Shown here: piece by piece, positions 2,810 to 52,341 of the stretch
Position numbering within the stretch: the stretch's first letter is position 1
Layout: each line of letters opens with the position of its first letter
Source of the DNA: a virus
Length of the DNA: 64,000 nucleotides
IMG/VR virus record: IMGVR_UViG_3300041955_000531
Direction: 5' to 3' (one strand)
Notes under the pieces: generated by a model
What the model was told of the DNA's origin: nothing
Databases searched by the model: none
The model's input: only the letters and a program-made list of their open reading frames with translations
Translations under genes and position numbers: made by a program

Positions 2810-3376
2810 ATGACAACTAGGGCCGCCACTTGGCCCAGTGGGACACGTGTAATCTGGCGTGACCTCACTTGGGGAGAGTACCGAGATGCCCGTTCTCGTC
2901 AAGGGCCTCCCGCTGAAGTAGCCCTACACGTCTATAAACTATGTGTTATCCACGGTCCACGGCCGGAAGAGCTTCCGGCCGGGATCATGATGTGGATCTA
3001 CAAGGACCAGCTTGAGAAGAGCCCCTTCTCTGGATCCTTCCAGACTATATCTCTTCCGCTAGAGAATGCACGCAAGAAGGTATCAGAGTCTTATCTTCTG
3101 TGCGCGCAGGCTTTCATAGCATCTGTATTCAAGATCCCTTTCGAGGTGATGAATGACTGGAGCGCGGAAACACTACTCGTACGCCTCGCCCAGGCTGAGT
3201 TTGTTAGCGGCGTGCCACTCAACCCGGTGGATCCTAAGGCCACTAAGTCTGCTAAGGGCAGTAATAAGAGACCGAAGCGGCCCCTTACCGACGCCCAGCA
3301 AATAGCAATAGAGAGGAAAAATGATCCAGCTTTCAATCGCCGCCCAGGACAAGCTCGCCAGCGTCCTCAAAGATAA
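2810..3376 (+). CDS. Probable second tail assembly chaperone
   Basis: VIWRDLTWGEY motif and synteny. Confidence 0.5.
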   Translation: MTTRAATWPSGTRVIWRDLTWGEYRDARSRQGPPAEVALHVYKLCVIHGPRPEELPAGIMMWIYKDQLEKSPFSGSFQTISLPLENARKKVSESYLLCAQAFIASVFKIPFEVMNDWSAETLLVRLAQAEFVSGVPLNPVDPKATKSAKGSNKRPKRPLTDAQQIAIERKNDPAFNRRPGQARQRPQR

Positions 3377-47500: not shown

Positions 47501-47705
47501 AAGATCAAAAGTTCGGGATAGCAGGCTTGAAGATCTTCTTCGATCTTGTTAGCCTGTAGAACAACCCGCTGATAGACATCTGGCCGTAGTCTACTCCGTA
47601 TGCATACTGCAGACTACAGAAGGATACCCGATGATACGGGTGCGCTCCTTGTTTGTACATCGATGTACATACTTCCAGAATGCCATCATAATCATTATAA
47701 CACAG

Positions 47706-48479
47706 TTACCCTGCTACGGAAAGCAAATCGGCCTTAAGTTGTGCCGCATCGAAGCCGGCAGGATCCCAAGCAGCGCCCAGCAAAGTGTGGGATTCATCAC
47801 AATACTTATCCCAGAAGGCCACGGTCATCTTCTGGAGCTGGCCCCAAGTGATGCAAGTAATGGTTGTAGCTCCGCCGGCATTAGTGTCCTTGACGTGGTA
47901 GGCTGGGCAATAAACAGCGTGACCGCCAACTATACCACCATCATGCTTGACAACGTCCCAGATCTTACCATTCTGATTCTGGATGATGGCCGAATAGGGA
48001 ACCTGCAAACCAATATAGACACCACCGAACTCTGCAACCGAGTGCATGATGTGTCCGAAGTTCTGAGGCTGTGGGCTAACATAAGCCTCCAGCACATGAC
48101 CGCCAAACGTCTGCTGATACCATCTCTTGAGGACTGTGCTCTCGTCGCCGCCGTTATCTGTATTGGGGTTACCAAGAACATAACCATCCCACTCTTCGTA
48201 CTTAGCCAGGATGAGGCTGTCTGGAGGAGTGATTTTACCCTTTGTCCAGACTTGAATAGCATGGCCTGGAGCGGCGATGGTGCAGTCTCCTATACCATCC
48301 GTGGGGACGTTCTCCCCGTAGTTGTTCGGACCGTTGAGCATCATGCCCCAGCTTGTAATGCCGTAAGTATTCTGGGCATAAGGCGGTGGGGTGTAGGAGG
48401 ACTTGATATAGTCCTTCATGCGTGGCTCGTAAGGGTCGAACTTAGCAGCTGTCTTACCGAGTTTGGGGATGAATGTCAT
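47706..48479 (-). CDS. Papain-like (C1-type) cysteine peptidase
   Basis: IGDCTIA (Cys), DNGG, GGHAV (His), ITWG. Confidence 0.75.
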   Translation of the reverse strand: MTFIPKLGKTAAKFDPYEPRMKDYIKSSYTPPPYAQNTYGITSWGMMLNGPNNYGENVPTDGIGDCTIAAPGHAIQVWTKGKITPPDSLILAKYEEWDGYVLGNPNTDNGGDESTVLKRWYQQTFGGHVLEAYVSPQPQNFGHIMHSVAEFGGVYIGLQVPYSAIIQNQNGKIWDVVKHDGGIVGGHAVYCPAYHVKDTNAGGATTITCITWGQLQKMTVAFWDKYCDESHTLLGAAWDPAGFDAAQLKADLLSVAG

Positions 48480-48490
48480 ATTGTCTCCTA

Positions 48491-49432
48491 TTAGACTGAT
48501 GGTCGATGGTGATGATGGTGATGGTGATGCTCGTGATGATGATGTCGATGATCATGGCATTCTGGATTCTTGCAATGCCATTCATCAACCAGCGCGCGCA
48601 TCTGAGGTGGCTTGTTTTGTGCGGCGTAATAGCGATGCGAGAGGGTGTTGTTCACACCTGATGTGGTTTGATTTTCCCACATACGCTCTTTCCAATGGAC
48701 CCAGTCTTGTATCCCTTGGGGTCCAATCTGTGGGTGCCACATGTGCAGAACCTGTCCAGGCATAGTCTTGTGCATTCCATAGAGTGTATCCATGGCACGC
48801 ATAGCGGCATGATCCTCACCGCCCCAGCCGCGGAAGCGAACATCCCAACCACCTACCAGCTCAAAAGCCTCACGAGGTACGATCTGAATCATTGCCCCAT
48901 AGTAATGACCGACTCCTGGATCAGTATCTCCCAGGATATACTCTGCATCTGGGGGAGAAGAGAATGTTGATGGTGATGCAGGATCAGATTGTAGCAAGTG
49001 CTTCGATGCTGTCTCTGTCAGACGATAGAACTTGCGATAAGGAACGAACCAGAGCTTATGCCCACGCTTACGGGCGTGGCGAATCTCCTCTACGCAATGT
49101 ATAACTACATCAGCAGTAACATATCCGTCTGCATCCACGATGACAAATACATCACCGCTAGCTTTGGATGCTGCAGCGTTCACTGCAACTGACTTGGAGA
49201 ATGGTTCTATATTAGGCTCGTCGCCAATAATGATCTCGGCGCCTGGAAGCTGAGTAGCCCAATATCTCTTAAGCCATGCAATGTTTCTTATGCGGGGACT
49301 TGATTGGTCGGTGCAACGGAATGGAATCAAGATACTTACTCCATGTCCCTTACGCAGCCGCCATGCAGCCAGGTATGCGAGGCCACTCGCAGCCAAGACT
49401 GACATAGCTGTGATGAGCATAACTGGGGTCAT
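48491..49432 (-). CDS. GT-A glycosyltransferase (GT2/GT7-like) with N-terminal TM helix and His-rich tail
   Basis: SILIPFR, FSKSVAVN, VDAD, GGWDVRFRGWGGED; C-terminal poly-His run. Confidence 0.9.
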   Translation of the reverse strand: MTPVMLITAMSVLAASGLAYLAAWRLRKGHGVSILIPFRCTDQSSPRIRNIAWLKRYWATQLPGAEIIIGDEPNIEPFSKSVAVNAAASKASGDVFVIVDADGYVTADVVIHCVEEIRHARKRGHKLWFVPYRKFYRLTETASKHLLQSDPASPSTFSSPPDAEYILGDTDPGVGHYYGAMIQIVPREAFELVGGWDVRFRGWGGEDHAAMRAMDTLYGMHKTMPGQVLHMWHPQIGPQGIQDWVHWKERMWENQTTSGVNNTLSHRYYAAQNKPPQMRALVDEWHCKNPECHDHRHHHHEHHHHHHHHRPSV

Positions 49433-50205
49433 TTCAACTCCCTTCCAAGCGCTCTGAAGGCATCATAGACGGCGAACTTGACATCTTCAACAAAGAACCT
49501 GTTAGGTGTTGTTACTTTCCCTGTAATGAATGGTGTCTTGATCGAGGCGCTGTAGTCCCTGAACTTGAAATCCCCACCATCTTTTGTCAGCTTTGGGCAC
49601 ATCTCCACTCTGCGTGGAATGGCGAAGCCATCTGCTACAATCATACCGTGTAGCGAAGAGGTTACAATCTTGCGGCATGCACCGATCTGGCGTATGACTT
49701 CCAGTGGGTCACCAGTCGGGTCAATAACTTTAGTGGTATAAGGCTTTTGAATCAGAGGAATGAATCGTGCTGCCAGCTCTTTGTCTTGCCAGTGCGGCAC
49801 GATGCCTAGGTCCCATTGCTTCTCTTGTAGTCCTACAAGTTCATCGGCTAGTATGCCTGGATCGCCGATAGCAAAGCTACCTGGTATTCCTTTTGCTGAT
49901 AATGGGCCACGAATGGCGAGTATCTTGGCTGTTACGCCAGACTTAAGTTGTTGCAGTTGCAGGCGGGAGTTTTCAATCAGCCTGCCAGATCCAAGAATAT
50001 AGCCGTCCCACAATGGCGGGATGTGTTCAAGTATCGAACCGACTGATGCTATTGAAGAATGAGAAATCGTATCCCACTCCACCTTGACTTCGGCGAAGTG
50101 TTCGAGCAATAAAGGCGCCATCGTATCGCCAAAGTTAGGAACTTGATTCCACCAATACGCTTTGACTGTATGATCTGCGAAGGGGTTTTGAAACCTGAAC
50201 TTCAT
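49429..50205 (-). CDS. Polysaccharide pyruvyl transferase (ExoV-like)
   Basis: NFGD, VGSIL, IRGPLS, GDPGIL, GIVPH, TSSLHGMIVAD. Confidence 0.9.
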   Translation of the reverse strand: MKFRFQNPFADHTVKAYWWNQVPNFGDTMAPLLLEHFAEVKVEWDTISHSSIASVGSILEHIPPLWDGYILGSGRLIENSRLQLQQLKSGVTAKILAIRGPLSAKGIPGSFAIGDPGILADELVGLQEKQWDLGIVPHWQDKELAARFIPLIQKPYTTKVIDPTGDPLEVIRQIGACRKIVTSSLHGMIVADGFAIPRRVEMCPKLTKDGGDFKFRDYSASIKTPFITGKVTTPNRFFVEDVKFAVYDAFRALGRELK

Positions 50206-50225
50206 TTAGGCCGTCTTCCAGAATG

Positions 50226-50654
50226 TTATTTCGATAAACTCAGTGCCTTCAACAGTACTGCAACACGGGCTAATGCTCTTTCGAGATCGCCCGAAGCTGC
50301 CTGAGGACCGTGCTGAGGTTGAAAGCCATTCAGCCACAGGTCCATCAGCTTGCCCCATAACTTACCAGCTACCTTCGCGCGCCAGGCATGAGTAGACATC
50401 GTCTCATCCTGCGCTCCCCATAAGACTACCACGTTCAGGAAGATATCCAAAGCTACCAGCGCTCTGTGCCAGTATGGTTCTGCTGCTGCCTTGGCTTCTG
50501 CCAGAGGTACATCATCAGGATAGACAAACGGCTTGGCGCCCTTATCTATCCAGTGTCTAACGGATCCTATTGCTACTGAAAGGAATACAAGTCCTGCTAC
50601 AGCGCTGCCGAATATCTCGCCGCCCAGTAGGAACTTGTGCAACAGATCCATCAT
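50226..50654 (-). CDS. Membrane-associated phage hypothetical protein
   Basis: GGAG RBS; TM segment; LDIFLN...DETMS motif. Confidence 0.7.
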   Translation of the reverse strand: MMDLLHKFLLGGEIFGSAVAGLVFLSVAIGSVRHWIDKGAKPFVYPDDVPLAEAKAAAEPYWHRALVALDIFLNVVVLWGAQDETMSTHAWRAKVAGKLWGKLMDLWLNGFQPQHGPQAASGDLERALARVAVLLKALSLSK

Positions 50655-50749: not shown

Positions 50750-50823
50750 TGGTACCCGAGCAGAGACTTGAACTCTGTTCTCCAGCTTGAAGGGCTGGTG
50801 TCTTACCCATATACGACTTGGGC
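50750..50823 (-). tRNA. tRNA-Glu(TTC), C33
   Basis: Stem CCAGC/GCTGG, loop CC-TTC-AA, CCA. Confidence 0.85.
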
Positions 50824-50825
50824 AC

Positions 50826-50984
50826 TTAAGACTTTGTTGTACCTGGCAGGATGTTCTTGATCCATGCTAGGATACTATCAACGCGCGCGATGAAGTTAGG
50901 ATAGTGCTGCTGGAACTTCATGCCGCCAAAGAAAACAAGAAGGGTAAGAATCCCTTCCACTACAACCTTGAGAAGTGTGAACAT
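50826..50984 (-). CDS. Small membrane protein (52 aa)
   Basis: AGGAG RBS before MFTLLKVVVEG; one TM segment. Confidence 0.65.
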   Translation of the reverse strand: MFTLLKVVVEGILTLLVFFGGMKFQQHYPNFIARVDSILAWIKNILPGTTKS

Positions 50985-51070
50985 AACGTCTCCTAAACTC
51001 TGGCTACGCTTCGGCTCGAGGCGCCCACGTAGCCATGCGATGTGTCCTCGCTTAGACACATCTAAACTGT

Positions 51071-51145
51071 TGGTAGTCTCGGCGAGATTCGAACTCGCGT
51101 GACCAGCTTGAGAAGCTGGCATCCTCGCCACTAGATGACGTGACC
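51071..51145 (-). tRNA. tRNA-Glu(CTC)
   Basis: Loop TT-CTC-AA, CCA. Confidence 0.92.
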
Positions 51146-51154
51146 ACCGAAAAC

Positions 51155-51190
51155 TGGCGGGACCAACGGGATTTGAACCCGTGATCCTGC
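51155..51190 (-). pseudogene. 3' remnant of an Asp-like tRNA
   Basis: GCAGG-ATC-ACGGG-TTCAAAT-CCCGT-TGGTCCC-GCCA: T arm and acceptor strand only. Confidence 0.8.
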
Positions 51191-51197
51191 TAAATCT

Positions 51198-51272
51198 TGG
51201 CGGAACCAGCGGGAATCGAACCCGCATCCCACCCGTGACAGGGGTGCGTCATAGCCATTAGACCATGGCTCC
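51198..51272 (-). tRNA. tRNA-Asp(GTC)
   Basis: Loop CT-GTC-AC, GCCA end; its first 15 nt overlap the HNH ORF end. Confidence 0.95.
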
Positions 51273-51593
51273 GTGATGTTTCATTCGGTGATGGTTAGCA
51301 CACAGGATGTCACACTTAGCTATTTCTTCCTGGATGCGTTTCAACGACCATCCCTTACGATTAAAGGAGCCGATCTCGAAAGACTTCTGCGCAGGATTTC
51401 TGTGATGGAAATCCAAGGCACTTGGGTGTTCTTTGAAACCACATACCTTGCAGCCTCTCTCGAGTTTATAGTCTTCGATCCACTTCTTGTTCCGAGCTAT
51501 CCGTAGCTTATCACACTTGCGGACGGCTTTCAAATGCTTCTTGCGATTCGCTGGATTACTATACCACTTCTTCCAAGCTTCTTGATTACTCAT
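51258..51593 (-). CDS. HNH endonuclease
   Basis: GCKVCG...LDFHHRNP...EIAKCDILCANHH; GAGGAG RBS. Confidence 0.9.
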   Translation of the reverse strand: MSNQEAWKKWYSNPANRKKHLKAVRKCDKLRIARNKKWIEDYKLERGCKVCGFKEHPSALDFHHRNPAQKSFEIGSFNRKGWSLKRIQEEIAKCDILCANHHRMKHHGAMV

Positions 51594-51596
51594 TGC

Positions 51597-52000
51597 TGCT
51601 CCTCGGATAGAGGAGTCAGCCTATCAACATCCCGCCATCGGCTAACCGCCGCGGTTTACCATCACGATTGCTTTGTCAAGGCAACCGATAAATACGAGGA
51701 TCTAACTGCAACACTCAAAGGCGACGCCAGCTCTCCCCCGTAATATGAGGGGGCACCAGCTTATGCAGTGGTGTCTGCAGCTCCTGCAGATCCAAGATGG
51801 GCGCGAGCAAGCCCGAAGCCTGACACTGTTCGGCTTTGGCCTCGGTAAGAGCGAGCAAAACAGTAAAAGGAACGCTCACTTACCCGCAAAGAACAACTGA
51901 CCTGAGTGATAAGTCTCACTCTATCCCGCGAGCGCTTTCCCAAACATCGGGCCGATGTAACGTCGCTTGCCGCTTTCCAAAGCGGCCAGGATAGAAGGAC
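51597..52000 (-). ncRNA. Candidate large structured ncRNA (about 400 nt), family unassigned
   Basis: No credible ORF; about ten hairpins visible by eye. Strand inferred from the surrounding operon. Confidence 0.6.
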
Positions 52001-52003
52001 TAC

Positions 52004-52171
52004 TCACTTACTACAGGTCAAACTCTTCAATCTTTCAATCTCGTTTGCTGCTTCTTCCAGAAGATCGGCGATACGATCAGGCTTGCCTTCCTGTACGCTC
52101 TTGCGTGTAGTTATCTGCCTTCGTATCTCGGCGCGCTTGCGCAGCCTGCTAATCAGATCTTCCGTACTCAT
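52004..52171 (-). CDS. Small phage hypothetical protein (55 aa), not in ORF track
   Basis: Hand translation MSTEDLISRLRKRAEIRRQITTRKSVQEGKPDRIADLLEEAANEIERLKSLTCSK; pattern recalled from other phages. Confidence 0.75.
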   Translation of the reverse strand: MSTEDLISRLRKRAEIRRQITTRKSVQEGKPDRIADLLEEAANEIERLKSLTCSK

Positions 52172-52176
52172 AAACT

Positions 52177-52250
52177 TGGTCCCTTGGGATGGGCTCGAAC
52201 CATCATCTCCTGATCTTCAGTCAGGGGTCCTACCATTGAACGACCGCGGG
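52177..52250 (-). tRNA. tRNA-Phe(GAA), atypical body
   Basis: Loop CT-GAA-GA; two acceptor-stem mismatches; CCA. Confidence 0.75.
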
Positions 52251-52252
52251 TT

Positions 52253-52341
52253 TGGAGGAAGGCCAGAGAATCGAACTCTGTCTCGCCTTTCGACGAGTCT
52301 CGGTTTTCGGGACCGTTGCCGACCATTCAGCGCTGCCCTCC
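52253..52341 (-). tRNA. tRNA-Ser(CGA), C33
   Basis: Loop CC-CGA-AA, long variable arm, TCCA end. Confidence 0.8.

Follow-up and report, generated by a model that had tools for sequence, protein, structure and literature searches.

Phage T4 produces two stable small RNAs of unknown role, RNAC and RNAD, from its tRNA region (PMC3014915). Hairpins that sequester the ribosome-binding site are known for the endonuclease genes I-TevI, I-TevII, I-TevIII, segB (itself located in the T4 tRNA region), and mobE (PMC2988022). Amongst other structured RNAs, GOLLD and ROOL often occur near tRNAs and in prophages, while CyVA-1 is a motif of ~78 nt found in large intergenic regions (Weinberg et al. 2017, PMC5737381). 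CyVA-1 has also been detected at low abundance in the cyanobacteria of a halite community; no description of a tRNA-array setting was found in the literature mentioning the motif.

The locus compared here with these systems lies in a 64,000-nt stretch of DNA from the IMG/VR virus record IMGVR_UViG_3300041955_000531 (the whole stretch is hereafter the window), which is phage-like and carries 25 tRNA genes and a tmRNA on the minus strand, as determined by tRNA and Rfam scans. Within the co-oriented tRNA gene cluster sits a gap of ~400 bases, bounded by a 55-aa ORF (P0002, 52004–52171) and an HNH ORF (P0001, 51258–51593), both on the minus strand. The initial annotation read this gap as one densely structured, entirely new RNA of ~400 nt, either free-standing or a partner of the HNH protein. 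The position of the gap directly upstream of the HNH gene, between the two ORFs, was confirmed. The claimed lack of coding potential also held, with all three frames closed across the gap, and the relatives differ by indels of 1, 2, 3, 8, and 95 nt, from which it follows that the gap is non-coding. Folding energies of the 414-nt stretch were unremarkable against chance (z = −2.0 on the minus strand vs. z = −3.1 on the plus strand, such that the antisense strand folds better), including when four sub-segments were folded singly (z = −1.1 to −2.3). As thermodynamics fail to single out the gap, the case rests on comparison with relatives.

At the gathering threshold, Rfam identified only the tRNAs and the tmRNA across the whole window. 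A scan of the locus (51100–52300) at E ≤ 10 returned no GOLLD, ROOL, or HEARO on either strand, and none of the three occurs window-wide at the gathering threshold; the likeness of the gap to these RNAs is one of setting alone. No homolog of the gap was recovered by blastn of the 414 nt against cultured phages, where only the small ORF and the tRNAs matched, and a repeat search identified no second copy of the gap sequence within the window. A promoter and terminator scan of the minus strand detected no sigma-70-like site and no simple terminator in the stretch. The small ORF belongs to a very large family (7993 significant of 8000 protein candidates scored), with relatives typically ~80% identical over ~50 residues. 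ORFs of this type are encoded by >577 IMG/VR stretches and lie inside a tRNA array in about a quarter of 80 IMG/VR loci; they also occur in Caulobacter Bertelyvirus phages and, unannotated, in the Rhodobacter phage RcXuper.

Comparison amongst relatives divides the gap into four pieces, designated modules A–D. From 5′ to 3′ along the minus strand, the features of the locus are:

52004–52171, minus strand: small ORF P0002, 55 aa, immediately upstream of the gap, with no Pfam or PHROG family.
51889–52003, minus strand: module A, a closing stem and two hairpins, with clear homology in the window and L006 types alone.
51794–51888, minus strand: module B, a 95-nt block missing from L006, with TCTT on both flanks.
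51690–51797, minus strand: module C, an extended hairpin of 32 pairs with conserved internal loops, defined by a covariance model and homologs.
51594–51689, minus strand: module D, 5′ leader of the HNH cassette, conserved only where that gene is present.
51258–51593, minus strand: HNH endonuclease P0001, 111 aa, free-standing, with a PHROG match; its 3′ end overlaps the tRNA-Asp.
51198–51272, minus strand: tRNA-Asp(GTC), 75 nt, carried with the HNH cassette and overlapping the 3′ end of the HNH gene.

Taking the mosaic, the small RNAs, and the homing-endonuclease leader as one joint reading, we judge it probable that the gap is a mosaic spacer in a tRNA operon, built of four independent minus-strand modules. 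The sole DNA match to the gap amongst 80 loci fetched via the small ORF was L006, a 215-kb IMG/VR contig syntenic with the window and 82–92% identical across the tRNA cluster. The L006 spacer from the small ORF to tRNA-Asp measures 230 nt and matches the gap over its first ~115 nt and again over nt 207–322, corresponding to a layout of A and C with neither B nor D and the HNH gene; relative to L006, the window has gained the 95-nt block at 51794–51888 and all of the sequence from 51689 down through the HNH gene. Three contigs that encode exactly P0002 (L214, L216, and L219) match the window, while a fourth, L215, is 100% identical over 52300–51690 (A-B-C), loses homology exactly at the C/D border, and rejoins the window at 50750, without the HNH gene or the tRNAs for Asp and Glu. 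In a further group, found through close relatives of P0002 (L223, L225, L224, and L226), C follows directly after the small ORF and there is no counterpart of the first 210 nt of the gap. Searches of IMG/VR and metagenomes via the neighboring 142-aa protein returned no further variant of the stretch.

These layouts bear directly on the proposal of one new structured ncRNA of ~400 nt, free-standing or acting with the HNH protein in the manner of omega/HEARO-type RNAs. The region is indeed non-coding, stem-rich, and directly upstream of an HNH gene, and part of it covaries, yet its pieces occur separately in relatives: A and C without B in L006, and C without A or B in L223, L224, and L226. A, B, and C were all seen without an adjacent HNH gene (amongst L006, L215, L221, L224, and L226) and D alone follows the nuclease, contrary to the expected co-occurrence of a partner RNA with its gene. 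Further, the pieces measure 95–115 nt each and are independent, unlike GOLLD, ROOL, and HEARO, of which not even a match at E ≤ 10 was found; the 111-aa neighbor is a small homing-type HNH enzyme rather than an RNA-guided, IscB- or TnpB-like effector; and the region as a whole folds less well than its antisense. A single RNA of this kind is highly improbable, and the lead, though attractive, was wrong in that the locus holds no large nuclease-partner RNA.

What does stand from the initial annotation is the presence of structured non-coding RNA, with strong covariation in C, some in A, and a recognizable family in B. All of the stems that it listed can be read in the sequence, though they fare differently amongst the relatives. 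TCTATCC/GGATAGA shows two compensatory pairs, GCCGCTT/AAGCGGC is kept as a 7-bp stem at the same position while five pairs differ in sequence, CCCCC/GGGGG exchanges C-G for G-C or A-U, and CTCCT/AGGAG, over the HNH ribosome-binding site, persists in L223 in another sequence. L006 lacks GAGTGA/TCACTC; the local hairpins TCTGCAG/CTGCAGA and CACCA/TGGTG break in L221, L223, L224, and L226, where covariation favors long-range pairings instead; and the suggested ACTGCA/TGCAGT pseudoknot finds no support, its 3′ partner being altered in L006 and L221 without compensation.

Module D belongs with the nuclease gene. Downstream of C, L223 and L225 carry a stretch with ~85% identity to D and then an HNH gene 80% identical to P0001 over all 111 residues, which in L223 has the same start and length as P0001 and likewise overlaps a 75-nt tRNA-Asp, while D and the HNH gene are both missing after C in L006, L215, L221, L224, and L226. 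D, the HNH gene, and its tRNA-Asp thus constitute one unit, which occupies an identical junction (between C and tRNA-Asp) in two backgrounds and is missing from their siblings, the pattern of a putative free-standing homing endonuclease. P0001 matches the HNH families phrog_2255 (9.6e-28) and phrog_3106 (3e-24), has no Pfam match at E ≤ 1, and displays the paired-His, Asn, and His residues directly in its sequence. The 75-nt tRNA-Asp of the cassette is not the tRNA-Asp found next to C in L006 and L221, which is 79 nt long and has another sequence.

D is made up of three hairpins: the first displays TTGACA in the loop, and the third (51595–51620) has the Shine-Dalgarno sequence GAGGAG as its 3′ arm, 5 nt before the ATG. 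The middle hairpin shows a C-G to U-A change in the comparison with L223, and L223 has a predicted, longer hairpin (12–13 bp) over AAGGAG in which the sequence of the 5′ arm and loop differs from that of the window. D is thus like the leaders of I-TevI and the other endonucleases in placing the Shine-Dalgarno sequence in a 3′ hairpin arm just before the ATG, with such a hairpin predicted in both copies of the cassette (window and L223), and P0001 is like segB in being an endonuclease gene in a tRNA cluster. D differs from those leaders in that no recognizable late promoter lies inside its hairpin, as judged by a scan for sigma-70-like promoters, from which the types used by the phage itself may differ. 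D is in these respects an ordinary homing-endonuclease leader.

The stretch could also be regarded as debris, either decayed coding sequence from the N-terminal half of a longer HNH gene or the 5′ half of a split tRNA-Asp. P0001 matches only the C-terminal half of the two PHROG HNH profiles, and beyond the cassette the window retains the remnant 3′ part of a resident-type tRNA-Asp; both would fit such decay. Against it, the three frames are closed, the L223 gene retains the same start and length at 80% identity, the acceptor 5′ strand that the remnant would need (GGGACCA) is not in the stretch, D included, and Rfam detects no partial tRNA there. The compensatory changes in A and C point instead to selection on RNA pairing, and decay is scarcely credible as an account of the gap. 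A group I or II intron carrying the HNH ORF was rejected, as the Rfam scan of the locus returned no intron family at E ≤ 10, the small ORF and the tRNA on either side are both intact, and the relatives show simple insertion of a cassette. The cassette occupies 51155–51689 (minus strand) in the window and 391–969 in L223, for comparison with 3396–4031 in L006; L006 has instead a different, 148-aa HNH gene after tRNA-Glu(CTC). At the locus of an HNH relative (L004, 2547–3331), a permuted tmRNA match below the Rfam threshold (RF04321, 42.8 bits vs. 47) extends over 785 nt around the HNH gene; it may mark a tmRNA gene in two pieces, either interrupted by the nuclease gene or lying on both sides of it.

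Module C is a new hairpin RNA, well supported by strong covariation. Between the window and L006, C differs by eight substitutions and one 2-nt indel in the apical loop; six of the substitutions form three compensatory pairs, one converts G-U to G-C, and one falls in a bulge. In a simulation of eight random substitutions in C, at least three compensatory pairs arose with a probability of 5e-6 and no broken pair with a probability of 0.006. A covariance model (R1) built from the window and L006 sequences identified four more distinct homologs, from L226, L224, L223 (with L225), and L221, the last of which is divergent (61.5 bits). The homolog collection proposed in the initial annotation thus yielded a six-sequence alignment with 98.4% of cells paired and double changes at 15 of the 32 pairs, a count reached by none of 500 shuffles, while sliding the partners by 1–3 columns leaves ≤4 such pairs; these statistics are somewhat flattering, given that the alignment is model-fitted and four of the six sequences are ≥85% alike, though the comparison of the window with L006 is independent of this bias. 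Several of the pairs in C are G-U, which would be C-A on the other strand, and the fold therefore belongs to the tRNA-sense minus strand.

In the relatives without the nuclease gene, 0–12 nt separate the end of C from tRNA-Asp; in L221 the tRNA begins at the very next base, and its start lies 3 nt on in L006 and about 4 nt on in L224. No other piece of the stretch is as old or as widely retained, and the ancestral layout has C as the 5′ neighbor of tRNA-Asp. Beyond these sequences, model R1 detected no C in 95 further sources, about 80 of them loci that share the small ORF, the known relative was the sole hit of an IMG/VR motif scan, and a pattern scan of prokaryote genomes gave at least 120 chance matches, with no C among the matches listed. 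Within these searches, C was seen in a single small lineage of uncultured phages only. The claim of novelty was in part correct: C adds one new RNA motif that is small, limited to a single lineage, and tied to tRNA-Asp, while the middle quarter of the gap belongs to a known family (see below). In general kind, C joins the non-tRNA RNAs already known from phage tRNA clusters, though its distribution is narrow.

The main competing reading takes C chiefly as a transcription signal, a long compound terminator or attenuator that closes the small-ORF transcript or gates tRNA-Asp through its U-rich tail UCGUAUUU. In all six sequences C closes with a conserved U-rich octamer (5 or 6 U), and where D follows, as it does in the window and L223, its perfect TTGACA could give the HNH gene a fresh start of transcription. 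The promoter scan, however, found no acceptable −10 box after this TTGACA, the terminator scan of the minus strand was empty, and the basal helix is only moderately strong, with three G-C pairs out of seven plus a G-U. The internal loops of C are conserved, though a terminator has no need of them, and termination in the middle of the array would cut off the downstream tRNAs. On balance, a role for C chiefly as a transcription signal appears unlikely.

Module B is a new, divergent member of the CyVA-1 family, falling just under the family threshold with every structural feature present; the statement of the initial annotation that no hallmark of a known family could be recognized does not hold for this segment. 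The Rfam scan of the locus matched 51805–51885 (minus strand) to CyVA-1 (RF02965; model positions 1–77, the full length) at 38.1 bits (E = 1.1e-6 in the 1.2-kb scan), whereas A, C, and D had no match at E ≤ 10. The score lies below the gathering threshold of 41.4, and the match is not listed in the gathering-threshold scan. B has the three-stem architecture of the family, with P1 enclosing P2 and P3, and one non-standard pair in P2, flagged at both of its positions in the Rfam alignment; an independent minimum free energy fold of 51793–51897 recovers the same three stems. The conserved loops L2 and L3 are present as UUUUACUGUUUU and GAACAGUGUCA. Of the stem given in the initial annotation as GGTAAG..GAGC/GCTC..CTTACC, the GAGC/GCTC portion corresponds to P2, while GGTAAG/CTTACC competes with P1 and P3. 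B is like CyVA-1 across the whole 77-position model, in P1, P2, and P3, in the conserved loops (UUUUACNGUU and GAACNGUGUCA), in size (81 nt vs. an average of ~78 nt), and in its loop-loop pairing, and differs in a longer P1, a longer 5′ side of loop 2, and its position in a phage tRNA array.

About a dozen distinct viral relatives of CyVA-1 were recovered from IMG/VR with a motif scan built from the two conserved loops. Five of these pass the Rfam threshold (46.5–62.1 bits), while the copy in L179, like that of the window, falls just under it (39.7 bits). The conserved columns of L2 and L3 are invariant across 11 viral and window sequences, most of those bases having been fixed by the search pattern. 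P3 is a perfect or near-perfect 8-bp stem in the viral copies with a different sequence each time, including double changes at all eight pairs. A loop-loop pseudoknot between UACNGUU (loop 2) and AACN′GUG (loop 3) forms all seven pairs in 11 of 11 sequences; most of its bases were fixed by the search pattern, though N and N′ were left free on both sides and covary with zero mismatches (UA, 6; CG, 4; GC, 1; AU in L148). The pairing is seen in the threshold-passing viral members as well, and covariation supports the CyVA-1 pseudoknot.

The viral copies also provide CyVA-1 with a concrete setting, namely viral contigs and, in two contigs besides the window, a position in or beside a tRNA array. 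The L179 copy lies between tRNA-Lys and tRNA-Thr in a 21-tRNA array, and the L150 copy follows tRNA-Trp on the same strand at a distance of ~25 nt (51 nt for the core); the remaining copies are not near tRNAs. Several copies (L199, L237, L241, L141, L165, and L142) have a TATAAA-like box 5–8 nt before P1 and a run of 5–7 U right after it, and look like self-contained small-RNA genes in which P1 may double as a terminator stem. The window copy has neither the promoter-like box nor the U-run, which fits an RNA embedded in a longer transcript. Ten ORFs flanking the threshold-passing viral copies had no Pfam match.

Module A folds as a three-way junction, recovered when the window and L006 copies were folded singly. 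An RNAalifold consensus of these two sequences, the only ones on which the covariation of A can be assessed, contains 25 pairs, of which five are changed on both sides and none is broken, and the first hairpin retains a perfect 7-bp stem though five of its pairs differ in sequence. The L221 spacer at the place of A is also structured (z = −3.1), with an alignment to A too weak to call homology.

A, B, and C are most likely small RNAs co-transcribed with the tRNAs and accompanied by the leader of a homing endonuclease, a reading for which RNAC and RNAD of T4 are the nearest precedent. Like these, A–C are non-tRNA structured RNAs in a co-oriented phage tRNA cluster and would presumably be matured from the same precursor as the tRNAs; unlike them, C is a motif defined by covariation, and no sequence or Rfam relationship between the two sets was found. 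From their strand and position, A–C would be compact RNAs excised by the tRNA-processing enzymes, and in the layouts without the nuclease gene, the RNase P cut at the 5′ end of tRNA-Asp would release C, a long hairpin ending in a U-rich 3′ tail. B would have arrived between A and C as a self-contained block of 95 nt, and D, the HNH gene, and their own tRNA-Asp would have been inserted later, exactly between C and the resident tRNA-Asp. With the Shine-Dalgarno sequence hidden in the last hairpin of D, read-through transcripts of the operon would be expected to translate the nuclease poorly. More speculatively, C, and perhaps A, could represent a new class of phage small RNA that is carried as the 5′ leader of a tRNA, freed by RNase P, equipped with a U-rich tail like those of the Hfq type, and active in trans against targets of the host or the phage, and CyVA-1 could be a phage small RNA gene with kissing loops and a compact, roughly tRNA-sized fold that the tRNA-maturation machinery can excise from copies located in a tRNA array; we offer this as a tentative possibility.

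Contigs that have or lack the HNH cassette, and that have or lack CyVA-1, form a ready comparison set for the remodeling of phage tRNA operons by small RNA genes and homing endonucleases. In L215, an otherwise 100% identical strain variant, 120 nt of unrelated sequence (2983–3102) replace 939 nt of the window (50751–51689), comprising D, the HNH gene, tRNA-Asp, the tRNA-Asp remnant, and both tRNA-Glu genes, and the phage population is therefore polymorphic for three tRNA genes. A short ENA contig (L220, 1403–1411) joins window position 51811, inside CyVA-1, to position 50297, 1.5 kb downstream; the contig may reflect either a genuine deletion or chimeric assembly. L006 lacks ~2.5 kb of the window (47689–50226) that lies between the 142-aa gene and the tmRNA; the segment includes genes for which the gene tables of L214 and L215 record Pfam matches to pyruvyl-transferase and glycosyltransferase families.
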